Origin: an uncultured virus (IMG/VR IMGVR_UViG_3300028569_000010)
Lineage: Duplodnaviria; Heunggongvirae; Uroviricota; Caudoviricetes
Reading direction: 5' to 3' (one strand)
DNA: 64,000 nt
IMG/VR virus record: IMGVR_UViG_3300028569_000010
Part shown: positions 17,654 through 63,999 of the stretch, one piece after another
Position numbering within the stretch: the stretch's first letter is position 1
How the letters are laid out: every line of letters begins with the position of its first letter
Notes under the pieces: model-generated
Seen by the model: the letters and a program-made list of their open reading frames with translations, nothing else
The model's database searches: none
What the model was told of the DNA's origin: nothing
Translations under genes and position numbers: made by a program

Positions 17654-17664
17654 AAGGAAATAAA

Positions 17665-18282: not shown

Positions 18283-18285
18283 ATA

Positions 18286-18891: not shown

Positions 18892-18894
18892 AAT

Positions 18895-22061: not shown

Positions 22062-22102
22062 AGTACTCGTAGTAGAAGAAATTTTGCTACGAGTATTTTT
22101 TT
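22062..22102. terminator. Terminator hairpin between the convergent blocks
   Basis: AGTACTCGTAGTAGAA-GAAA-TTTTGCTACGAGTATT forms a 16-bp stem (with G-U pairs on the + strand) and a GNRA loop, followed by a T-run. Confidence 0.85.
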
Positions 22103-22820
22103 ATAGATACTCTACGGTAAAATATAAACCGTAATTTGTTTTACTACCAATGCTTTGAGGTTCAGAACTGATTGCCATATACCAATCGTGTCTTAATGAA
22201 GAATGTCCTGCACCCTGAGTTGTGTTATAACCCAATGATATATTAGTATCTTGTGCTGATGTATTTTTACCACTTACCCCTGGAGAATCTGTAAATAACA
22301 TATCTACTGGAGATCCACCGTCAGTAGGATCAAATTCTACCCAAGAATTAGCAGACCTACCCCTGTATGCTAGATTGCTAACACCTTGATCTATAGATGG
22401 GTGCCTTGCTTCGTAAATATATGTTGAGACACCAGATGCGTGATTATTGATATTATTTCTATCAAATATTCTTAATTTACAATTTTGTACACGCACAGAT
22501 TCATTGTGTGTAAATCTAACATTGAGTGGACATTTATTATTTGGTAGATTATTTAAAGCAACTTCAGAAGATCTATTTATTAAGACTCTTCCGGCAACAG
22601 AACTATTTCCGTTAGTGACTTTAGAAGTATTATTTAATTCAATTCTCTCTGTAGAAGTACCATTAGAATTAGTTACGAATGTTGTAGATTGTTGATTTCC
22701 AATTGGAACTGAAGCTCCATATGTCAAACCGTAGAATCCTAGGCCAGATCCAGCAGTGTGGGCTATCTGGTAATCTCCGTTAGATCCAACTTCATTAGCA
22801 AAAAATAATATTTCAGCCAT
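22101..22820 (-). CDS. Putative virion structural protein
   Basis: S/G/N-rich, beta-rich 239-aa protein with SD AAGGGAG; last gene of the tail block. Confidence 0.6.
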   Translation of the reverse strand: MAEILFFANEVGSNGDYQIAHTAGSGLGFYGLTYGASVPIGNQQSTTFVTNSNGTSTERIELNNTSKVTNGNSSVAGRVLINRSSEVALNNLPNNKCPLNVRFTHNESVRVQNCKLRIFDRNNINNHASGVSTYIYEARHPSIDQGVSNLAYRGRSANSWVEFDPTDGGSPVDMLFTDSPGVSGKNTSAQDTNISLGYNTTQGAGHSSLRHDWYMAISSEPQSIGSKTNYGLYFTVEYL

Positions 22821-40000: not shown

Positions 40001-43000
40001 CCTGTGGGTTGAATAACTAAAAGTTTGTTTTCAATCTGTAGTGGTGGATCTGCATAATATTTATACAATACATTATTTTGGTCCATGATTTGTTTTAATT
40101 CAAGATCAAAAAATGCCATAGGTTCCATATAAAAGTTATTATATGTACTTTCATTGGGATTAAATTCATCAGCAAAAACTATAACGCAAGTTTTAATCTT
40201 GTTAGTAGAAATTTGATCAAACGTTCTAGAGAATTCTGCATCTGGACCGCCAGCCACAATTATTTCTCTTTGATTAGATCCATAAGATTTAATACCTGAA
40301 TTAATAGCTGTCGCCAAAGATGAACCAAGTTTTCTTCCTTCTTGTCCAGCATTCCACTGTGTTCGCGGGATAGGAAGTCCAGCAATGGGTGATACTGGAC
40401 TTAATAAAGTCGGATAATCTAATACATATCCAGAAGGCAACGTTAACCTATCTTCAATAACCCATCCAGTTTTATCAGAACTTAAAGTGCCACTATTTAA
40501 GCTTGGCTCTGGCAAACGTCTATATACATAAACAGATCCGGCGTTAGTTACGCCGCTACCATTATCAATAAGAGTTTCATTGGGCGCTCCGATGACTAAA
40601 AGATCTTTTGACGTTGCTACAGAATAACCAAATTTTGCGTTTTCCATTCTGTTGTTTGATATTATTTTAGTTCCAGAAAATGCAACATTGTTATTAGTTC
40701 CATATTCCCATTCTTCAAATTTTGGTGGTACTAAATTAAAATTGTCGTTACCAGTTAAAGCTTTGGCTGAAATAAAATATGGGGCGGATGGAACTAATCC
40801 TTCGTACTTTTTAATTCCATAGTAATTACCACTATAGCCAACCGTGTTACCAAAACCAGAAGCCGTTGGATTAGTATATACAGTTTTCGCTCGGAATATA
40901 CCGCCGTCAACACATCTATCTTCAGTCCATTGAGTTTCGTGTGTGTATATTCCCTTTTCTATACATGTGCCGCTACTTGAACAATCTCCCTCACAGATTA
41001 AATCTACTCCGCGAATTTCATTTCCTACTGGTATGCTGGCATAGACATTATCATCAATTTTAATATTAACGCCTGGACGTATTCCATTCCATATAATTTG
41101 TCGTTCACCCGACTTTAGTATGGTATCAAGATATCCGTCTAATCTCATATCTAAAGAATTAGAAACATCATAAGTAGTAAAATAATTAGTTGTATGTAGG
41201 TTAAAATAAGAGTCAGTGACAGTTAGATCTGTGACTTCTGTATATAAATTAAATATGGTGCTATATTTTAAAATTACCGCTTCAGCTTCAGATGGTCTTA
41301 CAAACAGTGGTAAATATGAAGTCTCTTTGTTAAAGATATCATAAGTTACCATAGGCATGGAAGAGTTTTGTGCGTAAATTTGTTGTATAGGACCAACAGT
41401 ATGTAGATTTAAAAATTCATTATCTACATATTGACCAGAAATATACAAGTTAATAGCGTTTGGATCAATTGAACCAAATAACATATCGTCAGAACCAAAG
41501 CTATTACCAACAGATCCACCTATGTATATAGGTATAGAGTTTTGATCAAGGCCAGAAACAGAAGATATATACAAGCTAACTACCTGTGGGTCTACTTTAT
41601 AAATTGGCCCTCCGCTTACATTGAGAATCAAATTATCAAATGATTCTTCGTGTGGTCTTACTACTAAGTCAAGGAAATTAAATTCATATTTTTGTCCATT
41701 GGTAACAAAATCTATAAACGAATTATTGTCTTGCTGTTTAGATATATAGTTATTTAGTTTTACATTAACTGAATTAATTCTAAGTCTAGATTCATATGGA
41801 GTACCAGATGGATAAGCTATATCATACTGTATAAACATCTTGTCTAAGTCAGATGAAAAATATTTATGATTAAATTCACTAATGCGTTTTTCTTCTGGAA
41901 ATATAGACCAAGATTCAGACTCATCAACAAAAGAATCAAAATCAAATCCTGTTTGTAGTAAACCAATATAATTTTTATTTTCTAAATAATGTATCCCACG
42001 ATTTATTAGGCCAAAGTTTTTAGCACTGTAACTGCTTGGATCTTTATTAGTAGTATATAAACTAACTATGAGTTTGGGGCCGCGTTCACCATTGGGCCAT
42101 ATTATATTACCACTAGATATATGCTCAAAAACAGTTTCTACCATCAAAGAATCTTTAATAAAATTATAACCCTGTGGCAAGTTTTTATTCACTCTAATGC
42201 CAGCAGAATAAAAATTGTCTGGAGCATCGCTTAAGCTTAATCTTAAGAAATCATTTTCAATTTGTGAATGATATGATAAAGCATTAGCATTAAAGCCAGA
42301 TGGTAAAGAAATATGAGTTTTATTTGAATATGGAGATCCATTATTCTTAATGTTGTAATAGATAAAATCATATCCACTTCTTTTAGATAAAGTTCTAAAT
42401 TCGCTAGATGAAAAATCTTTGTGTCTGTAATCACCAAACGACCAATCATCTACGCCTTCGTCAATAAAAGAGTGAAGGTGATGTTTATCATTAAAATTAT
42501 AATGAGCATTAAAAGAGTCAAAAAATCTATTTACATTAATAGTTTTTTGTTGTAGAATAGTATTTCCATCAACTATATTTGCGATATTCGATATACCGCA
42601 GTTGGTAATAAAGCTATTAAAATTACCACTAGATCTTGTATCGTGGCCTAAGATAATTGGGCTAGATCCACTTGTGATAATAAAATTACCCTGAGATGTA
42701 TTTCTCTTTAAGTTCCAACTGTTATAATTTTCTAGTTCGTTGTCTACGTAAAGATTAAGCTTTCTAGAATTATCGCTATTATAAGTTACTAGTACTCCAA
42801 GTGGATATGAATAAGAATTATATGCTACACTATCCTTTACAGTAATTAAGTTTCCACTATTATCTGTAGATTGAGAATATAAATATCCTCCAGAATATCC
42901 TAATAAAAACTGTAAAGTATTATTTGCTGTATACTTAGATGCTATAATTCCAGATTGAAAATTTGCATCAATGTAAGGTGATAGTCTAACAAAAAAAGCA

Positions 43001-48600: not shown

Positions 48601-51600
48601 GGTAATGGTAGCAACACCAGCAACAGCACCTAAAGAAGAAAACAGTTTTTCAAATCCAACAGAAGAACTAGATATTCCAAAGAATTTTCCGACTTTTTCA
48701 TCTAATGTAGCTCCTACCTTAGCAAAAGTTTCACCTAATTTTTGTGGTATTGTAGCTATATCGCTAAAGCCTTTTATTTCAATACCAGCTACTGATTCTA
48801 ATATAGAAAGAGAACTACTAATAGCTGTAACAGAAGATAATGCGGCACTTGCAATGCGAGTAAACGCATCATCAGTACCACCAGCAGTTTGTATTAATCC
48901 ATTTAAAGCAGCACTAGCGCCAGTAAGAGCTTGACTAAACGTAAACATACTCTTATTAGATTTTTCGCCACCGCCACTGGCTGGTGTGCCAGAAGGAGCG
49001 CCAGCGTCTGGTGTCCCAGCAGGAGTACCACCGGCTGGAGTGCCACCCGATGGTATTGGAAACGGGAATGGAGTATCGCCGCGCCTTCTAGCTTCTGCAT
49101 CAAAACCTGCGGGTTGGCCACCAAATCTATATTCCATTTTTTCTTTAGCTATATCTTTTCTGCTTCTAGCGTCATCTAAAGCATTACGAGAGCTTTCTTC
49201 ATCTTTAGTAGCTTGATCTATGGTGTCAGCTAATCTGCTATAAGCAGTAACTAAAGTATCCATTTCTTTTTCAACTTCTTTTAGCTTTTGAGCAATTACA
49301 AGAGATTCATTTCCAGTTGCTGTTTTTGCTTGTTCTTTAAGCGTTTCTCTAACGTCATATAAATTGCCAATCTTTTCTCCATACGCTCCACCGCCATCCG
49401 AAAACCTAACTCTACCACCCTTATTCAATCCCAAAGCCTTAGTAGCTTTTGCTCTAACAATAAAACTACCAACTGGTAAATTAGCAGGAATACTATCACT
49501 AGTACCAGTTCCCGGCCCCTTGAATACGCTAATACCACCACCACCAGAGAATCCACTCATTCCATTACGGTCAGCTTGATTCATTCTATTTAACTTACCA
49601 TAACCAATTTTCTTAGCAATTTGTGGTGGAACATAAGCTTCACCATTACTTACTAAGGCTGGCACCGTACCGCCAGTTTCAAAACCAAGGCGACCACCAT
49701 TAGCTCTGCTAAAATACTGTAAAGCCATTGCTCCACTATTAGCATTATCTCCCATGCGTATAACAGAGTTTTTATCGTTAATTAACGATGGAGATTTACT
49801 ATAACCGCTTTGTAAAATCCAAGCCGGATCAGTTGGGGCTGGCCAAGTTTCAGGCTTACCGTAAAGTTTAGGATCAATGGCAGCTTGGTTTCTTGTCCAA
49901 TCATCTGGTTTAAGTGGAGTTTTCTTTACGTCACCCCTATTCTTAAAATAGTATTCCCAAACCTTTTTAGCTGCACCGCTTACGCTACTCCTATCAGAAG
50001 TTAACATGGCCCCCTTAGATGTAGCTTCTTCCATAACAGTATCATATAATTTTGGCCCATACCCTTGAGTTGCTTTAGATAATCCAACATAATATAAATA
50101 ATCGCGCATTTTATATGCTGATACATATCCTTCTCTTTGATCGTTCTTAAAGTATGAAGCATTGATTGTATTACCATCAGAACGTAATCCTATTTTACCA
50201 TAATTTTTCTCTTTTTTAGCTGGTACTTCTTCTGATGGTTTTCTGTTACCGTAAAGACCTTTCATTAATCCTTGCATTTGATCCGTAGAATCAGCTAATC
50301 CACCAACAGAGTATGACTGTCTTTGTATTCCAGCATTTCCTAATAATTCATTTAGTGTAGCATCAAGAGTTGAGGATAATACTCCATCAAGCTTATTTGC
50401 ATTTTGTACAAGTGTGGTTAAAAATTCTTCCTTTCCACTATCTTCTATTCTATCAATATATGATTGTTTTAAACCATTATTTAATAAAGTTTGATTTATG
50501 TCTGGATTGAGTGGCTTAAATTCACGCGCTTTTTTTATACCCATAGACTTTACCCACAGACCCAAAGCTTCTTGATGGGCAGTTTCGCTATTGGGTGTTG
50601 TTTCAAGCTTGTTTTTATTGGAACTAATAATATTATTTAGATTAGAAACTTTATAAGATTTACCATATACAACATCAGCACTTGAGTAGCTGCTATTAAG
50701 AGCATCAAAAGCCTCTGAAAGATCATCGTTATCTCCTGTGAATAACTGAAGAACTCGCTCTTTGTATTTTGTGAAACTCTCAGCGTTTCTAGTTCTTAAT
50801 CCATTAATTAGTTGGTGAGTCATTTCGTGATAGAGAGTGCTACTATCACCACCAGTTGAAGATGATCTAAAGGGGTCAGATGTTCTAACTGATATTGAAC
50901 CACGACCAGTTTTCGCGGCTTTACCTTGTATGTCTTGGATAGTTTGTTCTAAAGCCGTAGATTTCAAGGAAGAAACTTTTCCATAGTTGTTTTGCGCAGC
51001 CCCGAGTTCGTCCCATACGGCCCTGGCGGCTTCTGTATCATAGCTAAAACTCCCATCATCATAAGTCTTTACGGGAGTCTTGGTAATTTTATCAGCCTGT
51101 TTTCTTTTTTCTTCTATTAATTTTTTATATCCATATAAATCTTGTTCGTGAGCTTTTGTAAATCCGGCTCCAGATACATCAAGTGATTCTACTCCTCTTG
51201 AAGTCATACCAGTTCTATCAAATTGACCCAAACTTTTTAGATTAGGAACAAAGTCTATAATTTTTGGTAGAGCCAAGTCGATGTTTTCACTAGGCAAACC
51301 AATTAACTTTGTAAAGTCTGCCATATCTTGATAAAGTGAGTCTCTTTTTATTTTGCCAGTAAAAGTGGACAGGAATCTATTTTTATCAAAGGGCTTATCA
51401 TGAGCTTCTCTTACTTTATTCGCATCAATTGACATTGTTTCGTTTTTTGGAGAAGAGTATGTATTATTAAATATTTGTTCAGACGCTTTCTTAAGCTGGG
51501 CGTCTCTTATCTCTCGCTCATAAGCATTAGAAATTCTTTTTGGAAATTCTGTTGTACCAGTTCCAAAGCCAACTTTACCAGCTTTGGCAAATTTTCTAAC

Positions 51601-54600: not shown

Positions 54601-56196
54601 TAACTCTTTATATCTAAGCATATAAGATTTAATAGGCTTACCGCTAGGAGCATCAGAAGCTTTTTCTACTGTTATAGGTCCACCCTTAGCTCTATTATTC
54701 ATTTTTACCAAATTACCAGCACCATACTTTTGTACAGCTGCACGATTCATAACAACTTCACCGGGAGTCAACATCGCCGGTACGCTATCTCTATTACCAA
54801 CACCGGGAACCATGCCACCCTTTTCAAAACCCAGCACTCTACCACCATTACTAAATCTACCAGAAGCCATTCCACGCGGTATAGAAGTCAAGAAACTACC
54901 TATGCCACGACTGATGTTAATAGCCATCATTGCGGTAAGAAGTGGAATAACTGGTGTTAAAGCTTCACCAATCTTTATAAAAGCAGAGGCAAGATTTAAT
55001 GCAGTATTAACGAATAATTGGAAACCGCGACTTTCTGTTACGCCTCTAATAAAAGCAAGAAACTCTTCTTTTACTTTGGTGATACGAATGGCTAGTGCTT
55101 GCTGTGCGGTTATGGCGTTTGTTGTTAAACCATCGCCAGCTTTTTGGGCGACATTTAATGCTTGTTGAGCAATAGCAAATTGTTGTAAGAGTGGAAGAAC
55201 TTTACCAATCTGTCTAAATCCGCCTAACTCTTCAGCAATGCGTATAAACGTTAAGTCTCCTTCTCCTAAACCATTTAATGCAGCACTTAATCTTTTAACT
55301 GCTTCAAATGGGCCAACGAATCTACCCTCTAGATCAACTAGTTCGATACCGAACTGTTTTAAGTACTCAATAGTCTTTGGTCTTTGTATACGTGTAAAAA
55401 TTGTTCTTAAGCCAGTACCAATACTCTCTGCACTTTCGCGCGTAGTAGCTCTTACGCTAGTAAAGAGGGCGAGAAGTTCATTAAGATCACCACCAGATGA
55501 TTTAAACACGCCACCAGTTCTTCTAATAACGTCAATTAAGTCAGCAGCTTCAACGGCAAATGCACCAGCGACGGCATCTATAGAAGATAGTTGACCTTCT
55601 AATGCCTGAACACCTAAACCGAACTGTGCCAAAATAGCAATAGCACCTTCAGTAGTTTCTGTAATACTATCAAAGTTAGGGGCTAATGCTGCCTTGGCTA
55701 ATGTTCTTAAAGCAATAGCGGTCTCGTTAGCAGATAAACCGGCCTGCTTTAGAATAGTAGATACTTCAAGCAAAGATTTAGACTCTACGCCCAAACTAGT
55801 AGCAAGTTCAGTTATAGTAGAAGTTAAACCTTTTAACGAAGCTATACTTTGATTACTTACCTGTGCAACTTTAATTAATTGTCTTTCAAATTCTATAGCA
55901 TCTCTAATAGCGCCAGCTAAACCGTTAGTAAATAATCCTACCGCCCGTGTGGCTATAGAAAATGAAGCGAATCGTTTTAACGAAACACCAAAAGCTGTTC
56001 CCATACGTTCTGCCGCAGTTGTGGCATCGTTGGTAGCAGCCCTAATTTGATTTATTTGTCTAGTAGCAGACGCAGCATTCTGTACATTGACGGGTATATT
56101 TACACCCGCCAATTGGCTTTGAATCTGATTTACTACTTGACGAATATTACTTGGTGCTTGTAGTTGTAATTGGGCAGTCAAAACAAATCTGGACAT
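45625..56196 (-). CDS. Tail tape measure protein with inserted enzyme-like domains (3523 aa)
   Basis: N-terminal TP901-type TMP core (FERQLIKVAQV..QAGL..ESIGTGLRTIFTR), Ala/Gly-rich hydrophobic helices near 48250-48900, coiled coils, D[ST]VPAMLTPGE.V motifs; follows the tail tube and chaperone genes. Confidence 0.92.
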   Translation of the reverse strand: MSRFVLTAQLQLQAPSNIRQVVNQIQSQLAGVNIPVNVQNAASATRQINQIRAATNDATTAAERMGTAFGVSLKRFASFSIATRAVGLFTNGLAGAIRDAIEFERQLIKVAQVSNQSIASLKGLTSTITELATSLGVESKSLLEVSTILKQAGLSANETAIALRTLAKAALAPNFDSITETTEGAIAILAQFGLGVQALEGQLSSIDAVAGAFAVEAADLIDVIRRTGGVFKSSGGDLNELLALFTSVRATTRESAESIGTGLRTIFTRIQRPKTIEYLKQFGIELVDLEGRFVGPFEAVKRLSAALNGLGEGDLTFIRIAEELGGFRQIGKVLPLLQQFAIAQQALNVAQKAGDGLTTNAITAQQALAIRITKVKEEFLAFIRGVTESRGFQLFVNTALNLASAFIKIGEALTPVIPLLTAMMAINISRGIGSFLTSIPRGMASGRFSNGGRVLGFEKGGMVPGVGNRDSVPAMLTPGEVVMNRAAVQKYGAGNLVKMNNRAKGGPITVEKASDAPSGKPIKSYMLRYKELNQKDKILGNIDRKTIDEEKIQKYYNESSNPKKTFASQIASNAKTKFTESGRTKEFSFGKGLAFEDFIGAYLTKVENKSGYRKTKNKYDPLDFVGGGDPIEVRFRKDPTSDETILAKRLRHTIKYSGLPKGFTSSIDDKPPVNIGSTILYQIDPNLKKEIGLNSGGIVQRFEEGGVAQRRVGIIDTDVLRDKKNAARVAEGMKLLDAKSEADYGIKLSKLAGEARQSGALGRFSVMAGAAANRKSSVATGRGANDNATLRKTTRKQILHPDDLKDVDQVMSLTTTLKESKLDYMGMADRIYVKDSSTEDEQKLVKLFERQRNLQKDPTLYGRETGTTEGLNSDYGLQTASLISQFGTTEDRTNKGKVMTLGEKTDQAGTPRFQIRRKRLEELPELASAKGQFPGAASPLTRGHAESAVGTLLEKVREKYPDATHKDLLFALAPDLSLDGGSQGREHGSRYGEYPASFRRDLIKLALPEMMISSANSPSQTGINSRIAEIEKGATGRRRFAVMEKDAPVVISKAENENPEGVMERYRSAGLTPYNIARSADTEGDSISGTATRQAVIDKDYAKLDLAVLPKVGSAIKSNQPQLRNRRMMVPLVQQALDIFTQANTSKVNEQVDGILQNASGGPFTRMTPKFKEAHPNLVKQITSLRKNRDIFQRDTFLDPAHELIRIISDRYPDIYGLDASRKEPIDIPVTEDSVKQHIVDSSKSSSYFRPGLSFNGDGIQLSPTLQKVKDAVDKEVKSEQVSVPQEAKEIVAPNSRSDIFKVLSRDEAAVASGVDQIKTYDIMGLRRELTPEEQKVKDAVKEAYVQKVKRQGASAKAQTTKLRGKGLEFGAAGLFGKAFAAKNIKIESDKLSSSRMVRVISGVMDQATATRLSTTMSQGVSNIISQGTDIVTAGKSKSPVTQSPLQGLNANTNATIQGGLIEQIIQQLGGPGAVKGKGFDFPEGLQGAAKYFNIDPNVPTDVKRTLSGPSTIKDNIVTYLKNVMGYNSGGTVRKFAKAGKVGFGTGTTEFPKRISNAYEREIRDAQLKKASEQIFNNTYSSPKNETMSIDANKVREAHDKPFDKNRFLSTFTGKIKRDSLYQDMADFTKLIGLPSENIDLALPKIIDFVPNLKSLGQFDRTGMTSRGVESLDVSGAGFTKAHEQDLYGYKKLIEEKRKQADKITKTPVKTYDDGSFSYDTEAARAVWDELGAAQNNYGKVSSLKSTALEQTIQDIQGKAAKTGRGSISVRTSDPFRSSSTGGDSSTLYHEMTHQLINGLRTRNAESFTKYKERVLQLFTGDNDDLSEAFDALNSSYSSADVVYGKSYKVSNLNNIISSNKNKLETTPNSETAHQEALGLWVKSMGIKKAREFKPLNPDINQTLLNNGLKQSYIDRIEDSGKEEFLTTLVQNANKLDGVLSSTLDATLNELLGNAGIQRQSYSVGGLADSTDQMQGLMKGLYGNRKPSEEVPAKKEKNYGKIGLRSDGNTINASYFKNDQREGYVSAYKMRDYLYYVGLSKATQGYGPKLYDTVMEEATSKGAMLTSDRSSVSGAAKKVWEYYFKNRGDVKKTPLKPDDWTRNQAAIDPKLYGKPETWPAPTDPAWILQSGYSKSPSLINDKNSVIRMGDNANSGAMALQYFSRANGGRLGFETGGTVPALVSNGEAYVPPQIAKKIGYGKLNRMNQADRNGMSGFSGGGGISVFKGPGTGTSDSIPANLPVGSFIVRAKATKALGLNKGGRVRFSDGGGAYGEKIGNLYDVRETLKEQAKTATGNESLVIAQKLKEVEKEMDTLVTAYSRLADTIDQATKDEESSRNALDDARSRKDIAKEKMEYRFGGQPAGFDAEARRRGDTPFPFPIPSGGTPAGGTPAGTPDAGAPSGTPASGGGEKSNKSMFTFSQALTGASAALNGLIQTAGGTDDAFTRIASAALSSVTAISSSLSILESVAGIEIKGFSDIATIPQKLGETFAKVGATLDEKVGKFFGISSSSVGFEKLFSSLGAVAGVATITASAFSAAAGILYSTSTTVAEYDKAMADGNIALVGTLSARKTAEEDIINSGGIFAGGIVAVAAIVPLFLASVTSMIPPLAGLSTALYSLVVPLAIAAAAIVGIGAIVLYATGNLENFANGTRDILSSLTGGWIQSTSTIQQFAQATAATSHTMKLMQDQAKQTTQALKDLSEGRKSAKEVLNQFSGQAQSVANAQSMATRLPQDTAKEKKDRDESIKKANENKDKVLSEAAPAINAQARNIAVAGGNFADFFASLPKELQAVYNQNPAELKLLKEAFGNTAKEVEIARKQFEAMNLGLRNVTSVTGAAVNSVTNFTAGLQAGNLAVAQSANTLTAALTAAGANISQNDFNNALNDVTGTMQSLGASDQQVAKFKDNLTALAQVQRNAGGIFDQLKEDIKAGGFTNMSPEAAGDKFRTLVDQQLKDSGIGDEARKRIGDALGDIEIGDKEREQIAAGDYSFLLKKLDEAGVGMTKEVNQMISDLQKVNSELNTLYKQRIESERSFVEAQRQSIALNLEGLEIQSKYGGRAVTPEIKRQAAIESANAGRRIAGVGDIRGSDPASLRAGLNQIRGNFAALEQKALQGKVSGQQGVKDEAIRENLKKAQQDQVKLIRDLISAEEEQLKLTKEKNKLEKDSLESLLAGDIDKFFEQQAAVGATAAIGTGNQAAINQFGGQALGGAYQNLQRQKEAGVTELFGQRIAGAGGLLESSATASLGSRGIQNPRMAQILAGTTQEEEASNRRLREYGGLLGEAGATGAEMAAMEVSRAEMNIATAELKIQNAGLNTDILNNQPQNRSRGGIVYASKGQLINFVPKGTDTVPAMLTPGEFVVNRGAVNRGDNLSFLRSINNGQYTANAQRLNNNPSSIPNIFKQLTSSPQSLQTQDTQNKVVQNERNISNVNFDVQKLSKQLGKFMSGFDGFMENFSEQVGKLGNTEVSHKLGDVNLNINGGQFLQSMADGLKQQLMEDLGQKLQGVKVNNVGNIKFGRTSVL
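48965..49060 (-). repeat. Low-complexity GTPA-type peptide repeat linker in the TMP
   Basis: PSGGTPAGGTPAGTPDAGAPSGTPASGGG; locally GC-rich. Confidence 0.7.
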
Positions 56197-56227
56197 TTTA
56201 TTCTCCGTGAAATGACTGCACTATCTA

Positions 56228-57091
56228 TTAACTGTCCGCTTCTTTTTTCTTTGATGACTTCTTCTTTGTTTTCTCTTTTACTTCGGTAGAAACTGATTCA
56301 GATTCTTCGTCCGTATATTCAGCCTGTAAAGCTAAAGCTCCGTCAGAATCTAATATGTGGCCTTCCATGTCTACTCTCTTTCCATCTTCGTTTAAGTAAT
56401 AACCCTCGTTATCTATTCTTTTACCGTCTATGTCTACTAGGTTATTCTCTGCATCCACCAAACTTAAATCACCATTGACAAAGTTAAACTTTCTAAGAAA
56501 TTTATTCTCTGGAAGTTTTTCTTCGAACTCTTTGTCTATAGAATACATCATTTGAGCTAAAGCATTAGCGGCAGCATAAGCTACTTCATCGTCCGCTTTT
56601 ACGTTGTAATCTTCTAGAGAATTATACACTTTTGTATTACCATCTTCAAGATATACGCAGTTAGCAACTAGAAAATCGAACTTAGAATTTTCAGATAAAG
56701 CTTCAGCAGTATTTTGCTCAAGACTTAATCTTTCAGATATAAGGTTACGTAGCATTAATCTAAGTCTACGCATAGAAATTGCAATTTCTTTACCGCGCTT
56801 TTTAGTTAACTTACCATCTGTACCTAGAGCGAGTTCTCTTTCTAAATTAGATATAGAATCAACTAAAGCCTGCTGCTGTTGATCTTTTTCAGAATCCCAA
56901 ATGTTTCTATTACGCATAAAAACTTCTAATTCTTTCTTTGTCATAATGCCATCGCGTGTACAGTTTGTCCACACTTTAGCACCAAGCAATTGGGCGTCTG
57001 ATAGCAACTTGTTACTTGGTTTCTTGACTAAAACCTTCTTAACTGTTCCATCTTCCAATTTAACTTCAACTTGTCTCTGTTTTTCTTTCAT
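56228..57091 (-). CDS. Putative tail assembly chaperone (paralog 2)
   Basis: Immediately upstream of the TMP; helical; similar to 57421..58455; C-terminal D-x-[DE]-G repeats. Confidence 0.6.
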   Translation of the reverse strand: MKEKQRQVEVKLEDGTVKKVLVKKPSNKLLSDAQLLGAKVWTNCTRDGIMTKKELEVFMRNRNIWDSEKDQQQQALVDSISNLERELALGTDGKLTKKRGKEIAISMRRLRLMLRNLISERLSLEQNTAEALSENSKFDFLVANCVYLEDGNTKVYNSLEDYNVKADDEVAYAAANALAQMMYSIDKEFEEKLPENKFLRKFNFVNGDLSLVDAENNLVDIDGKRIDNEGYYLNEDGKRVDMEGHILDSDGALALQAEYTDEESESVSTEVKEKTKKKSSKKKEADS

Positions 57092-57094
57092 TTT

Positions 57095-57421
57095 TTACTC
57101 CTTGTTTATAACTGGCATTGTTATATTATATCTTAGCCATTCGACATTATACTGAGATAATTCAGCATCAATATTTCTGGCTTGATGATTTCCCTTATCT
57201 AATATCTCCGAACGCATTGCTTGATATAATTCAAGCATTTTCTTTTGATCTTCTGTTAGCTTACTTGTGTCGCTATTCCATAAAAATCCAAAATATTTTT
57301 CCATAGCACTCAATGCACCAATCATGGTAGTTTGTACTTTCTTCTTCAATATTTTAGATAATCTATCTTTAGAATCAATTTGATATTTTTTATCTCTAAT
57401 AGTCTTATAATCCTTTTCCAT
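57095..57421 (-). CDS. Hypothetical protein
   Basis: 108-aa ORF with SD AGGAGG, between the chaperone-like genes. Confidence 0.75.
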   Translation of the reverse strand: MEKDYKTIRDKKYQIDSKDRLSKILKKKVQTTMIGALSAMEKYFGFLWNSDTSKLTEDQKKMLELYQAMRSEILDKGNHQARNIDAELSQYNVEWLRYNITMPVINKE

Positions 57422-58455
57422 TATTTCCTCCTAACAGTTTGTAAAAATTGTTGAGTTTGTTTAGCCTGCTGGTCTAAAATCTCATCTTGGAATTTATCTT
57501 GAGTTACAGAGCCTTGTTGATTAATTACGGCCTGTCTTTGTTTTTTAATCATCTTAGCATGGTAGGTATTAATACTTTCAATATCTTTAGCTTCATCAAC
57601 GCTAGATGCCATTAAATATACTTCAGAAGAATTTTTAACTTTACTATTCATTTTTTTATCCATATCCTGTTCTACCTTTTCCTGTTTCCTTTTACGTGAC
57701 TGAAATATTAGCCATCCATCCAACATATCGTCATCATCTATTACATCTTCGCTTGGGCAATCCATTGATTCATGTATATTATCATATGTTTGCGACCACA
57801 GAACTAAGTTTTGTTGATTTATCGTAATGTCACGCCCTAGATCTAGGAATAGATTTTGTTTATTATTACCCTTGATAAACCACAAAGATCGCCAAGGTTC
57901 ATTGCGCGCCAATTCTCTTATGATATCTTCTTGTAGGATACTTTCGCGGAAACAATCTAGAGCATAATCTAATTCATCGTCATCTAAATCACACACCCTA
58001 TCATTTCGAAAACAGTTACGTTTTATAATATATCTTAGTTTCTCTAGGTTGGCTATACTTTCACAAGTATTATAGTAATATAAGTTTTTTTTGCTTATTT
58101 GATCATTAAGTTTTTTCTCAATAGATCTAAGATATCTCTTTAGTTGACTTGCTTTGTTTTTTTCTTTATTGAGCTTGTATACTTCTACTTTGATATCCTC
58201 TATATTTTTTCTTATACCTTCTAAGTCTTTTTCTTCGTGATGGCTCCATAAATTATGTTCTATCATCCACTCTGCCATTTGATGTTCGTTCATCATCTCT
58301 TCATTAAGAGCATTAAAGTATGCTTGGTCATATATTTCACATGACTCTAATCTGTCCTCAATGGTGGGGGGATATAATTCACAGTTTAGTTTTGGTATTT
58401 TGATCTTACCAAATCTGATCTTTAATAAAAAAAGCTCTCGCTTTTGAAAGTCCAT
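57421..58455 (-). CDS. Putative tail assembly chaperone (paralog 1, with C-terminal extension)
   Basis: Directly downstream of the tail tube gene; N-terminal half resembles 56228..57091. Confidence 0.55.
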   Translation of the reverse strand: MDFQKRELFLLKIRFGKIKIPKLNCELYPPTIEDRLESCEIYDQAYFNALNEEMMNEHQMAEWMIEHNLWSHHEEKDLEGIRKNIEDIKVEVYKLNKEKNKASQLKRYLRSIEKKLNDQISKKNLYYYNTCESIANLEKLRYIIKRNCFRNDRVCDLDDDELDYALDCFRESILQEDIIRELARNEPWRSLWFIKGNNKQNLFLDLGRDITINQQNLVLWSQTYDNIHESMDCPSEDVIDDDDMLDGWLIFQSRKRKQEKVEQDMDKKMNSKVKNSSEVYLMASSVDEAKDIESINTYHAKMIKKQRQAVINQQGSVTQDKFQDEILDQQAKQTQQFLQTVRRK

Positions 58456-58481
58456 TATAGAACCTCACCAGCGAGAGCTTT
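58427..58481 (-). promoter_or_regulatory. Hairpin covering the SD and start codon of 57421..58455; terminator/attenuator-like
   Basis: Perfect 12-bp inverted repeat AAAGCTCTCGCT (58431-58442) / AGCGAGAGCTTT (58470-58481). On the - strand its 3' arm runs into U7. Confidence 0.7.
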
Positions 58482-58484
58482 CAT
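58455..58484 (-). CDS. Putative 9-aa leader peptide MKALAGEVL
   Basis: SD AAAGGA 5 nt before the ATG; stop TAA overlaps the next ATG (TAATG). Confidence 0.5.
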   Translation of the reverse strand: MKALAGEVL

Positions 58485-58522
58485 ATGTTTCCTTTATATT
58501 CCTAATTTGTTAACTTATATTA

Positions 58523-59680
58523 TCAAGCAACTATATTACCACTGGTGCTGTCTATTACCTGTAAGTCATTGAAGTTAGTGTAACTAAATGTCATAGTTGC
58601 ATTGCCACCACCAGCATCGCCACCAGCAAAATTAATTGATGATAAACGATTTCTAGTACCAAGATTAAACTCGTAACCATTGCTAATAACTAACTTAATA
58701 GTTTCGTCTAGTGTATTATTACCACTTGTTCTTGTGTTAGCATGTAAACCGGGATCACCTTCCTCTAGAGCATTTACGAAATCTCCAGAATTAGAAATAA
58801 CTTCCATTTCACAAGTCACTTCAATGGGGAAAGTAGCAGGACGATAGTAAGCAAACTTACGACCTAATTCGAAGATATCTTCACGACCAAAATCTGTGCT
58901 TACGGTAACTGACTGAATATGAACTTTGTTAGTTTTACTACTAGATTCATAACCGTTTCCAGCAACTCCCGAAATATTACCTAATACTAAATTAGGAGAT
59001 GTAGCCTTAATAATACTTGCTGGCATAATTGATGAAGCCATATTGAAGTTTTCTCTTCTTGCAACACCAAGAGTACCTACGCCGCTTGGTTGATCAGTAC
59101 CAACTCTAGAAGCTCCAGTACCACTACCAAGTAATTTAACCGTTGCCGCAGTGTCTAATAAAGTATTTGGAGTACTATCATTACTACTTGACCACTGCTT
59201 ATGATTTCCAGCTAATGTGATAGATTCTGTCATATTTCCATCTGTTGGCATTGTATAACTAACATTACTAACATACATACCCGACATATAAACTTGAGTA
59301 GTTGCGTTAACATTAGATACAGTATTAACAGTCTCATCAAAAATACCTAAATGTACGCAGCACTGGTTATTAGCTCTCTGTGCTAATCCTGCACCTTTTG
59401 CGCTGAAAAATCCACCATCTTCTGAGGCGCAAGTAGCAGCTGTATAAATAAGTGGGTGGCCGTCTAGTACTTTCTCTAGAGTAACTTCAACTTCTGGAAT
59501 ACCTTCAATGTTTTCGTAGATTTCTAGCTGACCAAATTCGAATACTTGTTCAAGGTTAAAAGCCGTATTAACTCCAACACTCTGAACGCCGTGTAAAACG
59601 TATATATCTGGACTTGCCACGTTCATTTCTGAAATGCCAACAGCTTGGCAGGCATAAAAAATTCTCTTATTATTAGGCAT
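58523..59680 (-). CDS. Major tail (tube) protein
   Basis: Strong SD AGGAG. GVQSVG..F..EQVFEFGQLEIY and IQSVTVS..REDIFELG indicate two tube-like domains. Lies between the tail terminator and the chaperones. Confidence 0.7.
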   Translation of the reverse strand: MPNNKRIFYACQAVGISEMNVASPDIYVLHGVQSVGVNTAFNLEQVFEFGQLEIYENIEGIPEVEVTLEKVLDGHPLIYTAATCASEDGGFFSAKGAGLAQRANNQCCVHLGIFDETVNTVSNVNATTQVYMSGMYVSNVSYTMPTDGNMTESITLAGNHKQWSSSNDSTPNTLLDTAATVKLLGSGTGASRVGTDQPSGVGTLGVARRENFNMASSIMPASIIKATSPNLVLGNISGVAGNGYESSSKTNKVHIQSVTVSTDFGREDIFELGRKFAYYRPATFPIEVTCEMEVISNSGDFVNALEEGDPGLHANTRTSGNNTLDETIKLVISNGYEFNLGTRNRLSSINFAGGDAGGGNATMTFSYTNFNDLQVIDSTSGNIVA

Positions 59681-59711
59681 GAGTTACTCTCCTATAGAAT
59701 ATGTTGTTAGT

Positions 59712-60662
59712 TTAAATATTATCATCGATGATTTCTGCCATTATACTTACTATACACAAAAATAAGTTACTATTAATAGTTTTAGATTCGCTAGCCGTAC
59801 ATTTATTTAGTCGAATACTATATCCTGGGAAATTTTTGATAAGTTCTGGATATCTTAGTGCATTAGAAGATAAGGTGCCATCATATTTAATTGGAAAAGC
59901 ACCACTAGAAGCTATAGTATTAGAATTAAAAGTATATATCGTTTTGTCGTTTTGCATAGAAACAATATCAACTAGTCTATTAAGATCAAAATCATTTTCA
60001 GCCATACAGTGGAATAAAATTTGATTAGTAATATACTGGCCTCCACCAAGTTGATATCCAGACATTCTTCTATTAGGTACTATCTCTACAGCTATAGCTG
60101 GAAGTTGAACTTTCATTTCGTTAGGCGTAGTTTTGTTTGGGTCTTGATCTACATTATATAGAGATTTATATTCGATTTCTCTAAGCCAAGGTAGAGAGTT
60201 TGCATACATTACATTGATGTATTTATAAGAATGTGGTATTTGGACATTAGTATTCCTATTAATACCATTAGGATTACTAGTTCCGCTAGGTTGAGTAAAA
60301 ATAATTCTACCATTATAGTAGTCTATTTTATAGTCTCTTCCGCTAGGCTGAACATTCAATTGTCCATCAATATATATTGAAGAAGGATAAACTGGGGGCG
60401 TGGAGTAGCTTATGCCACTTTGCCATACCCAATTGCCTCTAAAAGCTTGAAAGACTGTACCATCAATATGTTTTAGATCTACATAAGATAATTTGCTGTA
60501 ATCTTCATTAAGCTCATTTCTTTCATTAAGAGTTACATTAAAGTAATTGCCCTTTTGTAGCAATCCCCAATCAAAAAATTCAACAATATTATCCTGCAAC
60601 TCATTCCCAAGAGTCGTTTCAAAAACACTATTAAAACCTTTTAATGATGTATAATCGCTCAT
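59712..60662 (-). CDS. Putative tail terminator/completion protein
   Basis: QLPAIAVE..YQLGG motif and position upstream of the tail tube. Confidence 0.55.
   Translation of the reverse strand: MSDYTSLKGFNSVFETTLGNELQDNIVEFFDWGLLQKGNYFNVTLNERNELNEDYSKLSYVDLKHIDGTVFQAFRGNWVWQSGISYSTPPVYPSSIYIDGQLNVQPSGRDYKIDYYNGRIIFTQPSGTSNPNGINRNTNVQIPHSYKYINVMYANSLPWLREIEYKSLYNVDQDPNKTTPNEMKVQLPAIAVEIVPNRRMSGYQLGGGQYITNQILFHCMAENDFDLNRLVDIVSMQNDKTIYTFNSNTIASSGAFPIKYDGTLSSNALRYPELIKNFPGYSIRLNKCTASESKTINSNLFLCIVSIMAEIIDDNI
59749..59758 (-). promoter_or_regulatory. TGTGTATAGT promoter-like motif
   Basis: About 70 nt upstream of the tail tube ATG (59680). Confidence 0.4.
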
Positions 60663-61294
60663 TTGAATAATTCTGTGTTGATTATTTGAGTTATTTGATT
60701 TTCTTGCACTGAACCTGTTAAAGCTCTTGTAATAAAGTTATCAGTATCTATACCAGAATACTGTGGGGGAACTCTAAAAGAGCCACCAAATTTCATAATG
60801 CCCTGTCTAGATCTACCGCTACCAGATTGTGGAGAGTAGTTGTAATTAGCGATTATAACTGAGTTTCCCATAGTAAGTAGCCATTTTAACCAATGTAAAT
60901 CTCCGTCGCTATACACGACATGGCCGCTTTGTAATGATAGTAAATTTTGAAAATCTGATGGTTGTATTTCTATTATTAGCCCGCCATTTAACTGACTATC
61001 TATAGATGTAAAATTAAATGAGAGAGAATTGACTACTGAATTTACTATATCGTCAACTACAGTATTTGTTGATCCAGGTCTTAATCCAAATAAAGCAAAT
61101 AAAGTGTTTGGGGTTTGTGATTGTAAAGAGACTATTTCTGATTGAGATTGAATCCAACTAGGTATATAATTTTTAATTTGACTTATGGTTCGTGTTTTAT
61201 TTTTTTTGATTTTATCGTTTAGATATTGAGCTATAGCAACGTTTATATCGCCAGTGATTTTAGAAAGTGGATCTAGTAATTTAAGTGTTATCAT
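60659..61294 (-). CDS. Putative neck/tail completion protein
   Basis: WLKWLL..G and C-terminal DNFITRAL; ATG 61294 overlaps the upstream stop (ATGA). Confidence 0.5.
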   Translation of the reverse strand: MITLKLLDPLSKITGDINVAIAQYLNDKIKKNKTRTISQIKNYIPSWIQSQSEIVSLQSQTPNTLFALFGLRPGSTNTVVDDIVNSVVNSLSFNFTSIDSQLNGGLIIEIQPSDFQNLLSLQSGHVVYSDGDLHWLKWLLTMGNSVIIANYNYSPQSGSGRSRQGIMKFGGSFRVPPQYSGIDTDNFITRALTGSVQENQITQIINTELFK

Positions 61295-61773: not shown

Positions 61774-62318
61774 TATAATACTTTCCTAGACTCTATTTCT
61801 TTTATACGTTTATTATAGCACATTTGAAATAAAATACGTGCTTGATTATATTCAAACATTAATTTTTTAAAATCCTCAAATTTTATCTGTCTTGGGGTGT
61901 TCGTACTATCTAGTATCATTATTTTTGCAGAATCTTCTAAAGATGCATCTTTACTAGACACAAGAGTATTTATTAATGTGTGATAAGTATTATCATCCAT
62001 AGACAATCTATAGTTATAATTAGTTTGCCAACCATTTTTAAGTATTTCTTTTTCACGCTCAATTAATAACTCTTTAATTTGTTTAGTAATTGGCGCATTT
62101 AGGTTTAAATTATTTTTGTGAGATTCATACCAAGCGTTGCCCTTTTTACTATTAACATACTCTTCTAGATCTTTTTCACTATCAAAAACTTTTATATCGT
62201 GATTAGTAGAAACTTCTCTACCAAAATATAAATTACCAAAAGATAATATTTCTGAAGAAGTATTATGTATTACTGCGTACCAAATATTTTCAGCTTTGTA
62301 ATTATACATTAATAGCAC
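61773..62318 (-). CDS. Hypothetical protein, possibly fibre-assembly/DUF4376-like
   Basis: Follows the repeat-rich fibre-like gene; C-terminal ILDSTN..F..LMFEY pattern. Confidence 0.5.
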   Translation of the reverse strand: MLLMYNYKAENIWYAVIHNTSSEILSFGNLYFGREVSTNHDIKVFDSEKDLEEYVNSKKGNAWYESHKNNLNLNAPITKQIKELLIEREKEILKNGWQTNYNYRLSMDDNTYHTLINTLVSSKDASLEDSAKIMILDSTNTPRQIKFEDFKKLMFEYNQARILFQMCYNKRIKEIESRKVL

Positions 62319-63999
62319 CTAAATCATTTATAGTCCAATCGCTGGATAGTAAGTAATTACGAGCAGACATTAGTGAAACAGATGAGCCATCATAGTAAGA
62401 AGATGCGTGTAAAACTACGTTACGCTGAACTTGAGATGTTGACCATCTTACTAAGATATTACTATAAGTTTGTGTGCTTAAAGATGACGCATTTGTAAAC
62501 ATAAAGCTCATATCTTTGACCTTACTTATATCCCAAAATCCAATGTTTTTGTTAAAGCTTGAAGCTCCATTAAACATATTGGTCATGCTTACAACGTTAT
62601 ATGTATCCCATCCAGCTATGTCTTCGTCAAAAGATATAGCCCCAGCAAACATGGCGCTCATATCTACAACCTTGCTAGTATCCCAACTATTTAAACTTCT
62701 ATTAAATGATATAGCTCCAGCAAAACATGAATTCATACTAATCACACTAGATGTATTCCATGCGTCTATATCTACATTGAAAGATGAGCAATCTTTAAAC
62801 ATATAGCTAATATCAGTAACATTTACTACATTCCAATTTTCCAAACTGGTGGAAGAAATTGGTGGTTCATCTAATATTGATGATGTGTGGTATTCACCAA
62901 GTGACACATTACCAAAATCATTGACACTATTTAATTTAACTGGTAATTCACTATTAGTTAACTGCGACACTTGATATCCTAACTGACCGTATGTATTATC
63001 TCCCCATAGCCATAGATCTTTATTTGATTGAATGGCGGCACTGTGTCGATATCCAGCGTAAATATTTGTAAAAGTAAGATCATTTCTAATAATGCTAGGA
63101 GCATTTATCTTATTTCCACTATTTTTACCCTGCTGATTACCTAGTTGACCATAAGCATTATTACCCCAGCCATAAGCTTTATCTAGAGAATTTATAGCTA
63201 AAGAATAGAACTCTCCAGCACTGATCTTTTTCCATGTAGATCCACTTAGTAAAGTTGGAGTATTAACAGAATTGTTATGTCCTAAACCTAATTGCCCATA
63301 AGCATTATTACCCCATGAGTATAAATTATCGGAAGTATCTATTGCCAAAACGTGATCTCTACCAGCATCTACAGTCTTCCAAGTCTTAATACCAATTTTT
63401 ATAGGTACATTTCTAAGAATAGTATCACCTGTTCCTAGCTGTGAATATTCATTGTTACCCCAGCAATATAATTCATCATTGTCAGAAATTGCTATACTAA
63501 AATCATGACCAGTAGCTACATATATCCATTGTGTATCTATTTGATCTATTAATACTGGAGATAGTCTGTTATTATTAGTGCCATCTCCAATCTGACCATA
63601 AGCGTTGCTGCCGAAAGCGTATAGCTTGCCAGTATTATCTATAGCTAAACTATGATCTCTACCAGCAGCTATATGAGTCCAAGTTTTATTACTAATTCTA
63701 GCTGGAGTAATACGTGTAGTTCTATCACCGTGTCCTAATTGACCAACACTATTATTGCCCCAAGACCATAAATATCCTTGATTGTCTATAGCGAGAGTGT
63801 GATTTTTACCAGTTGCAACTTTTCTCCATCTCTTATTAGTTGATTTTCTTGGAAATGGATTAGAGGCAGTTGATGTATCATATCCTAATTGACCATTAAT
63901 ATTAAGACCAAAAGATAGAATAAAATTACTAGAAGTTTCAGTATCATCTACAGAACCCAACAACTCGCAACCATTAAAGAAACCTATAATAGAATTAGC
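62302..63999 (-). CDS. RCC1-repeat + DUF285/BspA-like repeat protein (5' partial)
   Basis: About 7 RCC1 blades (G..HSLAI..G.LY.WGNN.YGQLG) then 25-aa repeats (WDTSKVVDMSAMFAGAISF). The frame stays open to the window end. Confidence 0.9.
   Translation of the reverse strand, partial: ANSIIGFFNGCELLGSVDDTETSSNFILSFGLNINGQLGYDTSTASNPFPRKSTNKRWRKVATGKNHTLAIDNQGYLWSWGNNSVGQLGHGDRTTRITPARISNKTWTHIAAGRDHSLAIDNTGKLYAFGSNAYGQIGDGTNNNRLSPVLIDQIDTQWIYVATGHDFSIAISDNDELYCWGNNEYSQLGTGDTILRNVPIKIGIKTWKTVDAGRDHVLAIDTSDNLYSWGNNAYGQLGLGHNNSVNTPTLLSGSTWKKISAGEFYSLAINSLDKAYGWGNNAYGQLGNQQGKNSGNKINAPSIIRNDLTFTNIYAGYRHSAAIQSNKDLWLWGDNTYGQLGYQVSQLTNSELPVKLNSVNDFGNVSLGEYHTSSILDEPPISSTSLENWNVVNVTDISYMFKDCSSFNVDIDAWNTSSVISMNSCFAGAISFNRSLNSWDTSKVVDMSAMFAGAISFDEDIAGWDTYNVVSMTNMFNGASSFNKNIGFWDISKVKDMSFMFTNASSLSTQTYSNILVRWSTSQVQRNVVLHASSYYDGSSVSLMSARNYLLSSDWTINDLGAINV

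Follow-up and report, generated by a model that had tools for sequence, protein, structure and literature searches.

A conserved RNA hairpin encloses the start site of the gene that follows the tail tube gene in an uncultured lake phage and its relatives

Introduction

How does a phage make one tail protein in great excess over the tail proteins encoded just after it on the same strand? For every few molecules of tape measure protein and tail assembly chaperone, a long-tailed phage requires hundreds of tube subunits, and to our knowledge the way in which this ratio is set has been worked out for only a few model phages. The question is posed by a junction in a 64-kb stretch of DNA from an uncultured member of the Caudoviricetes (IMG/VR record IMGVR_UViG_3300028569_000010; hereafter the window), which belongs to a lake phage of about 135 kb. 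Between the gene for the tail tube protein and the next tail gene, on the minus strand of the window, lies an RNA hairpin of about 50 nucleotides (nt) and three helices, the subject of this study. All coordinates are positions in the window.

A first-pass annotation, made from the letters of the sequence alone, had proposed that this hairpin and a leader mini-open reading frame (ORF) ahead of it act as an attenuator or translational coupling switch that sets the output of a chaperone and of the tape measure protein below that of the tail tube. We find this interpretation largely right in outline; its mechanism is one that we, too, infer, and the leader is not universal among relatives.

Results

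Our reading of the sequence agrees in every detail with the leader that had been described, a mini-ORF for MKALAGEVL that follows a Shine–Dalgarno (SD) sequence and ends on the next start codon, the last A of its TAA doubling as the A of the main ATG (TAATG in the DNA, UAAUG in the RNA). The complementarity on which the proposal was built is likewise exact: AAAGCTCTCGCT in leader codons 2-5 (58481-58470) pairs perfectly with AGCGAGAGCTTT in codons 5-9 of the downstream gene (58442-58431), which runs into U7. When 131 nt were folded with RNAfold, a 13-bp outer stem and an 8-bp inner helix were predicted, with the AUG at the apical loop, and the annotated enclosure of the GAGG SD and the AUG by inner pairing was reproduced (minimum free energy −33.6 kcal/mol, z = −4.0; none of 200 shuffles was as stable). 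The leader and its SD region are predicted to be unstructured. The longer tract that includes this SD, TTAGGA-N5-AAAGGAAAC, has one exact copy in the window, is kept in short-form relatives (long-form relatives are described below), is also predicted to be unpaired, and may be a site where ribosomes stand by or load.

The arms form the longest spaced inverted repeat of the window (arms at most 60 nt apart), and no other hairpin-plus-T-tract on either strand is as stable as this one (−28.9 kcal/mol; the runner-up, at 22064-22104, reaches −19.5 kcal/mol). That runner-up is a clear terminator at the point where the plus- and minus-strand gene blocks converge; on the plus strand, T7 comes after its 13-15-bp stem. 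A perfect 12-bp repeat is by itself not very improbable in 64 kb; what settles the reality of the hairpin is its conservation with covariation among relatives.

The tube protein belongs to a large family (3643 proteins at E <= 0.001 among 8000 candidates scored), and one metagenome scan yielded 546 confirmed loci from 597 pattern matches. We examined junctions at 8 IMG/VR loci, 80 metagenome loci kept of those 546, and 13 loci from genome bins, with the Arg codon of the 3' arm as an anchor. The anchor could be set at 80 loci, which gave 75 distinct junctions of 86 nt; five loci whose sequence ended too early (L004, L030, L031, L068 and L087) were left out, as were L008, L063 and L065, in which there is no hairpin. 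Covariation was tested on a 15-pair structure drawn by hand from the resulting alignment, A4, which has 76 rows including the window, 75 of them distinct.

The hairpin is conserved, with covariation, among these uncultured aquatic phages. Standard pairs occupy 92.7% of 1125 cells; sliding the 3' partners by 1-3 columns lowers this share to 38.0-57.1%. None of 500 column shuffles reached the covariation score. The first-pass annotation had looked to related phages for covariation in the stem, and double-sided changes do occur, at 10 of the 15 pairs (80 cells). Compensation tracks synonymous and non-synonymous codon changes in the 3' arm alike (CGG/CGA/AGG for Arg, GAG/GAA/GAT, and TTT/TAT/CTT): C-G becomes U-A where the Arg codon is CGA (three rows, including the window), G-C becomes U-A where it is AGG (L048), C-G becomes A-U or U-A where GAT or GAA replaces Glu, and at pair 41-104 U-A, G-U and A-U alternate with Tyr/Phe codons. 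Wobble pairs are frequent (20 U-G at pair 49-96, 26 G-U at 64-93, and 22 G-U at 41-104), and because each would be an A-C mismatch on the other strand, they argue that selection acts on the sense RNA rather than on the DNA or an antisense transcript. The middle helix is 96.9% paired; the innermost helix is weaker, at 68-81% per pair. Hairpin energies in the 75 junctions range from −17 to −30 kcal/mol with a median of about −24.5 kcal/mol, and in all 75 the SD and the AUG lie inside the hairpin. Distant relatives with tube identity of at most 44% (L008, L063/65, L097-L099 and L101) lack the hairpin, which thus marks a subfamily.

A scan of IMG/VR for the exact arms returned 88 stretches, 78 of them distinct; 47 have the family layout and 31 are chance matches in GC-rich contigs. 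Arms of the window type (GCTCTCGC...GCGAGAGC) returned at least 119 unrelated hairpins from IMG/VR and none from the family among the matches listed, and a tighter form of this pattern found the contig of L001 only. The 13 loci from a scan of a genome collection all lie on metagenome-assembled bins of unrelated phyla and therefore give no hint of the host. In Rfam 15, no covariance model matched the window at its gathering score, and the sole match among 12 relatives at E <= 1 was a chance one to U6atac (E 0.6). A simple scan of the window for terminator consensus did not list the element because it allowed loops of 3-8 nt only. Opposite the element, a general scan showed no plus-strand gene or convincing promoter, no search being aimed at antisense RNA.

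Several other identities for the element were considered and rejected. The upstream TTAGGA motif is a poor promoter candidate, being present once in the window and without sigma-70-like spacing; the hairpin is far too stable for an RNA thermometer and, as a plain hairpin without a pocket, does not suit a riboswitch. A DNA-level operator or cruciform is at odds with strand-specific G-U pairs, and a duplicated gene start with arms that are complementary rather than repeated.

The leader recurs among relatives. An SD and ATG precede the 5' arm in 59 of the 75 distinct junctions, where mononucleotide shuffles lead one to expect 10.2, neither figure being corrected for phylogeny. These ATGs start 7-21 nt ahead of the 5'-arm core, and the leaders that they open, 5-18 codons long, all cross the 5' arm. 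Their stops all fall within −15 to +14 nt relative to the main AUG: 32 at the UGA inside cAUGAgcggg (main nt 12-14, 11 nt downstream), 13 at UAAUG, 5 at AUGA and 9 elsewhere (−15 to +8). A leader is also found in 19 of 31 family-like IMG/VR junctions that came from the DNA pattern and were not already among the examined loci. The peptide MKALAGEVL itself occurs only in the window, L001 and L010. On a FastTree tree of 74 tube proteins, leader presence changes about 5 times and frame class at least 20 times, with sister taxa often differing; any selection on the leader thus acts on translation through the arm and not on the peptide. In the window, TAATG is the phage's habitual coupling junction (6 of 43 same-strand junctions, with 4-nt overlaps at 8 of 43), and the 67-nt gap between the tube gene and the 344-aa gene is the second largest of the 43. 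Nine of the junctions without an SD and ATG leader (L002, L003, L005, L007, L011, L024, L054, L057 and L061) have in common CATGAGGTTTTTATGA, in which a 4-codon ORF (ATG AGG TTT TTA TGA) begins inside the hairpin, with its stop and the main ATG overlapping as ATGA; without an SD at a usable distance, this ORF is probably incidental.

In the window, the element also has the form of an intrinsic terminator, with U7 right after the 13-bp stem, and it ranks first among the hairpin-plus-T-tract sites. It lies 41-98 nt past the tube stop, and its 3' arm and U-tract fall in codons 5-11 of the next gene. In the hairpin/U-tract/bubble-edge (HUB) model, as set out in the accessible part of a preprint, GC(U)7RU is the signature of the strongest intrinsic terminators, and a hairpin and U-tract without the edge dinucleotides barely terminate (bioRxiv 10.64898/2026.05.29.728758). 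The tail of the element matches GC(U)7RU exactly at 58435-58425, with GC at −11/−10 and AU at −2/−1, a consensus derived from Bacillus subtilis and Escherichia coli RNA polymerase. The window holds 3 matches where 0.27 would be expected; the other two (42989-42999 on the minus strand and 50528-50538 on the plus strand) lie inside or antisense to giant genes and are not among the 25 best hairpin-plus-T-tract sites, and only the element's copy follows a strong hairpin. Relatives favor U at the synonymous sites after the stem, with TTT 63 and TTC 8 at the Phe site (46.3 TTT expected from flanking genes) and TAT 29 and TAC 2 at the Tyr site (65% background). An RNA 3' end is predicted near 58425. 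We found no alternative, antiterminator pairing for the 5' arm, and the region without the 3' arm is unstructured (z = +1.07); a switch of the trp type is thus not supported. The window's subclade sits on a long branch of the tube tree and has lost the upstream hairpins described next, and it appears to have perfected the hairpin as a terminator.

A second conserved RNA element lies between the tube gene and the leader in 36 of 102 loci (L046:2718-2793, L050, L066, L077 and others) and is absent from the window. In these long-form relatives a long stem, wholly different in sequence from phage to phage, carries a near-invariant apical part, UUGC-GAUAGC-N4-8-AGGA(Y/A)A-GC(R)AG, of which each locus has exactly one copy, invariably placed between the tube gene and the leader. 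RNAalifold missed the outer stem, in which bulges shift the register, and we used per-sequence folds, 18 of 40 of which have z < −2; Rfam gave no match to this element. In the deep-branching L063, L089 and L099 the long stem is followed by T5-T8. A further hairpin stands directly after the tube stop in L018, L042, L046, L047, L059, L066 and others, where it is consistently followed by GGA(C/T), and in L063/L065 and L073 this first hairpin is a canonical terminator with a G5-6 stem and T7. The GGA after the first hairpin, the AGGA in the next loop and the AAGGAAGGA SD make three single-stranded GGA motifs in series, an arrangement that we take to be reminiscent of CsrA-type binding sites.

An AlphaFold2 (AF2) model of the 385-aa product of the gene upstream of the element, built from 56 homologues (predicted local distance difference test, pLDDT, 79.7; predicted template modeling score, pTM, 0.81), had as its top Foldseek matches in the PDB 8xan, 7qg9, 9iny, 8hrg and 8ed0 (E 7e-8 to 4e-6); the matches comprise the SH-Ab15497 major tail protein, T5 pb6 and tail-tip core chains, DT57C and P74-26. 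There were 11 PDB matches at E <= 0.001, the top-ranked being tail tube, major tail, or T5-type tail-tip or baseplate chains, and the template modeling (TM) score (query) was 0.40-0.50 over about 390-430 columns. Judged by this modeled fold, the gene encodes a siphophage tail tube protein with a duplicated domain (T5 pb6/P74-26 type), in keeping with its first-pass assignment as the major tail gene. Neighboring clusters of the protein in the ESM atlas carry PF18906 and PF26461 (Phage_tube_2 / Phi812_tail_tube), which serve as a lead only. The next gene encodes a 344-aa protein with a conserved N-terminus, M-x-x-x-(K/E)-R-E-(F/Y/L)-F, and an all-alpha AF2 model (pLDDT 89.9). Since Foldseek found no match to this model among PDB folds (best E 0.24), its label of chaperone is a guess from position. 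For both proteins, Pfam and PHROG gave no match and the PDB searched by sequence gave nothing useful.

The proteins encoded from the element onward are those of 344, 108 and 287 aa and the 3523-aa tape measure, whose gene is the third beyond the element (which itself reaches into the 344-aa gene) and part of the same tightly packed operon; its PhageMin_Tail domain (Table 1) upholds the earlier claim that the operon runs on to a tape measure gene. Tail length follows a rule of about 1.5 Å per tape-measure residue, and because the tape measure has 3523 residues, the tail is likely to be unusually long, by rough reckoning 0.5 µm, with several hundred tube subunits per three tape-measure copies. 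The phage sequence turned up in 24 sequencing runs, all of lake or freshwater DNA; neither blastn (distant mode) of 56000-61000 nor tblastn of the tube protein found a match in 50,697 GenBank phage records.

Table 1. Features of the tube-gene junction and of the flanking tail genes in the window
Feature	Position	Strand	Remarks
Major tail tube protein gene, 385 aa	58523..59680	-	Strong SD (TAGGAGAG) ahead; AF2 and Foldseek
Tube-gene stop TGA	58525-58523	-	Read from sequence
Spacer between tube stop and ATG of 344-aa gene	67 nt	-	Read from sequence
Single-stranded motif TTAGGA-N5-AAAGGAAAC	58505-58487	-	Conserved; includes leader SD
Leader SD AAAGGA (core AAGGA, 58494-58490)	58495-58490	-	5-nt spacer before leader ATG
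Leader ATG	58484-58482	-	
Leader mini-ORF, ATG AAA GCT CTC GCT GGT GAG GTT CTA TAA = MKALAGEVL	58484-58455	-	9 codons and TAA
5' arm of outer stem, G + AAAGCTCTCGCT	58482-58470	-	Leader codons 1(G)-5
Inner helix and apical loop with main SD and main ATG	58467-58445	-	RNAfold
Main SD GAGG	58466-58463	-	Paired within inner helix
Main ATG of 344-aa gene	58455-58453	-	
3' arm of outer stem, AGCGAGAGCTTT + T	58442-58430	-	Codons 5-9 (K-R-E-L-F) of 344-aa gene
GC-U7-AU (GCTTTTTTTAT), U-tract with both bubble-edge dinucleotides	58435-58425	-	Directly after stem
T7 tract	58433-58427	-	
344-aa all-alpha protein gene	57421..58455	-	At tail assembly chaperone position
Tape measure protein, 3523 aa	45625..56196	-	PF10145 PhageMin_Tail, E 2.3e-23, residues 127-312

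Elsewhere in the window, the gene for a 3841-aa protein with FG-GAP repeats (34090-45615, minus strand) adjoins the tape measure gene, and a 553-aa protein with an RCC1-repeat beta-propeller and DUF285 repeats (62302-63963, minus strand) stands at the head of the tail gene block and may be a fiber or adhesin. On the plus strand, 4799-8936 holds a split DnaE (DNA polymerase III alpha), with a PHP and NTPase part of 526 aa and a finger and HhH part of 519 aa, between which a 121-aa ORF and the gene for an RNase T-like exonuclease (226 aa) are found. A cluster at 9257-19749, also on the plus strand, contains no fewer than five genes for glycosyltransferases and two for FkbM-type methyltransferases.

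Discussion

With modest confidence, we read the element as a leaky intrinsic terminator combined with a hairpin that occludes a ribosome binding site (RBS) and is relieved by leader translation or by ribosome standby. Because the window's hairpin has the full form of a strong terminator (13-bp stem, GC-U7-AU), many transcripts would stop there, ending near 58425, about 31 nt into the downstream gene, and leaving much more tube mRNA than mRNA for the 344-, 108- and 287-aa proteins and the tape measure. In RNA that reads through, the hairpin would bury the GAGG SD and hold the AUG at its apex, blocking direct initiation. Ribosomes could load instead at the single-stranded AAGGA tract 5' of the hairpin and translate the 9-codon leader; a leader ribosome would cross the 5' arm, stop on UAAUG and melt the hairpin, and either it or the exposed site would then serve the main AUG, by termination-reinitiation or translational coupling. 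Where relatives have no leader AUG, the AAGGA tract would serve as a standby site. The net effect would be a large step down from tube protein to assembly proteins and tape measure, and the order of tube gene, element and tape measure gene fits the need for such a step.

A number of our observations weigh against parts of this reading. Since the 3' arm is coding, protein constraint could account for some of its conservation. A preprint on B. subtilis and E. coli RNA polymerase, from which the host enzyme may differ, is the source of the GC(U)7RU rule, and the U preference after the stem, assessed with a binomial test that ignores phylogeny, could reflect AT-rich codon bias at gene 5' ends. The ideal terminator tail is confined to the window's small subclade (the window and L010, with GC-U5-GU in L001); most relatives have AG-U6-AU or GUA-U4-GU, which depart from GC(U)7RU, and the deep-branching L063/65 and L073 have a separate canonical terminator directly after the tube gene. 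Termination may thus not be the ancestral or general function, for which RBS occlusion is the safer name. As to the leader, the conserved ATGA and CATGAG in part dictate its stops near the main AUG, and their placement is therefore not independent evidence of coupling. The leader of the first-pass annotation survives as an ORF across the 5' arm in most junctions; the peptide is not conserved, and 16 of the 75 junctions lack an SD and ATG leader altogether (13 without any ATG and 3 without an SD by regular expression), 14 of them in one half of the tube tree. We had expected leaderless hairpins to be weaker, an idea refuted by their stability, which equals that of leader-bearing ones (medians −24.2 and −24.6 kcal/mol, Mann-Whitney p = 0.92). 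Leader translation therefore cannot be obligatory, and the leader is dispensable at least in one clade. Leaderless junctions retain the AAGGA tract, which could act as a standby site.

Many of these points would be accommodated if the element were an intrinsic terminator and nothing else, the enclosure of SD and AUG and the mini-ORF being by-products of a compact genome, with downstream genes expressed from read-through RNA by ordinary initiation. The perfect hairpin with GC-U7-AU, the U preferred at synonymous sites, the existence of a leaderless clade, and leader stops that follow automatically from ATGA and CATGAG are all consistent with this view. We nevertheless consider it unlikely, as it leaves unexplained a roughly 6-fold enrichment of leader SD and ATG (59 against 10.2) that persists through at least 20 frame changes, an SD and AUG within the hairpin in 75 of 75 junctions, and a stem that is kept even though most relatives' U-tracts are sub-optimal. 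Nor can a hairpin of −24 kcal/mol over an RBS be neutral for translation, given the established relation by which RBS structure governs initiation, reportedly de Smit and van Duin's work. Alternatively, a phage protein, either the 344-aa protein acting autogenously or a tail component, might bind the AUG-apex hairpin as an operator and repress the downstream gene, in the manner of the MS2 coat-protein/replicase operator or the T4 autogenous repressors. The AUG in the apical loop, the extra conserved loop motif of long-form relatives, which suggests recognition by a factor, and a stem core near-invariant in sequence (U-A and C-G in 75 of 75, the next three pairs in 71 of 75) across phages whose tube proteins are only about 45-50% identical would suit such an operator. 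The invariant core, however, coincides with the conserved codons R-E, which explain its conservation more simply; it also changes with compensation in some lineages (AAUCCC/GGGAUU, UUCCC/GGGAA, CUCUCG/CGAGAG), and the neighboring proteins show no RNA-binding domain in Pfam, PHROG or fold comparison. We therefore regard an operator as quite improbable.

Two further accounts make specific demands that the locus answers poorly. In a strict attenuator like that of pyrBI, a leader ribosome close behind RNA polymerase would prevent the terminator stem from forming, and read-through would report translation capacity. The good terminator form and a leader that covers the 5' arm and stops in the loop, where a ribosome would physically exclude the stem, are what this account calls for; yet the U-tract ends only about 55 nt beyond the leader SD and no programmed pause is evident, so that a ribosome would rarely load in time. 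Antiterminator pairing and conserved regulatory codons are missing, the leader frame is not conserved, and the leaderless clade retains the hairpin, all of which makes strict attenuation very doubtful. Least probable of all, and hardly to be expected, is a processing site for RNase III or another endonuclease that would leave a protective 3' hairpin on the tube mRNA, as at T7 RNase III sites: the window's coaxial helices, with a total of about 21 bp and small internal loops, come near substrate size, whereas those of most relatives are shorter and interrupted (8-11 bp, then 4, then 4-5), cleavage within the hairpin would destroy the downstream RBS or start, and nothing specific to such sites was found.

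A broader reading takes in the long-form relatives. The whole module could be a dedicated, lineage-wide regulatory RNA at the junction of tube and assembly genes in very long-tailed aquatic siphophages, read by a trans-acting factor, either an autogenous phage tail protein or a GGA-binding host protein of the CsrA kind. It would consist of a hairpin with GGA after it, a long covarying stem whose apical loop GAUAGC...AGGAYA is invariant, a leader with a strong SD, and the start-codon hairpin, and through these parts the output of tube, chaperone and tape measure would be actively balanced during assembly of a tail of about 0.5 µm; the window would carry a reduced version in which the last hairpin has been turned into a terminator as well. 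We offer this as a speculative proposal that is rather unlikely to hold in full.

On the reading that we favor, terminator with RBS-occluding hairpin, one compact RNA element appears to combine terminator, RBS mask and leader ORF across a very large lineage of uncultured aquatic phages, and it offers a model for the control of tail-protein stoichiometry. As a means of making far more tube than tail-assembly protein, such a hairpin is neat and not unprecedented. The element adds a new conserved cis-regulatory RNA motif that is not in Rfam, and a natural terminator whose 3' half is coding should be useful for annotation and for the prediction of terminators and RBSs.

Comparison with known systems

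Leader-peptide coupling is familiar from plasmids, its primary descriptions being, it is said, those of Blomberg (1992) and of Praszkier and Pittard (2002). In the accessible part of one account, the leader ORFs of R1 tap/repA, IncI1/IncB repY/repZ and IncI2 repR/repA are translated through an RBS-sequestering stem-loop and terminate at or over the main start, thereby activating it (PMC8053102). The phage junction, like R1 tap/repA, has a short ORF, preceded by an SD of its own, ahead of the regulated gene, a stem-loop that sequesters SD and start and is overlapped by the leader, and a leader stop at the main start. Unlike R1, it has no evident antisense RNA or pseudoknot, its hairpin is terminator-shaped with 3' arm and U-tract inside the main coding sequence, it belongs to a tail operon rather than to replication control, and dependence on the leader, to judge from the sequences of the leaderless clade, would not be universal.

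Intrinsic terminators can follow major structural genes of phages, as T-phi follows capsid gene 10 in T7. The element resembles these in its stem, its U7, its GC at −11/−10 and AU at −2/−1, and its place just after the gene for the most abundant tail protein. It differs in that the 27-nt "loop" is structured and holds the next gene's SD and AUG, and in that the 3' arm and U-tract are codons 5-11, so that terminated RNAs would carry the truncated, stop-less start of an ORF.

Start codons are reportedly accessible to ribosomes that terminate within a few nucleotides of them, as Adhin and van Duin (1990) are said to have described for the MS2 coat and lysis genes. Ribosome standby at structured RBSs is treated in the accessible part of a separate article (PMC5934652). 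As in that system, a stable RBS hairpin here has an unstructured tract immediately 5' of it; the tract is SD-like AAGGA instead of CA or AU repeats, is usually followed by a real start codon, and lies in the operon of a dsDNA phage. In attenuation of the pyrBI type, the regulated genes lie downstream of a terminator hairpin whose 5' half is overlapped by a leader ORF. The same overlap occurs here, with neither a pause hairpin nor a metabolite-sensitive step, and with a leader that is much shorter and whose frame is not conserved; the antiterminator or pause element and the regulatory leader codons that define trp and pyrBI attenuators are absent from the element.

A literature search, to whose coverage supplements and subscription journals did not belong, found no described equivalent. 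The systems closest in function are leader-peptide coupling and the ordinary intrinsic terminator, which here are merged in one hairpin.

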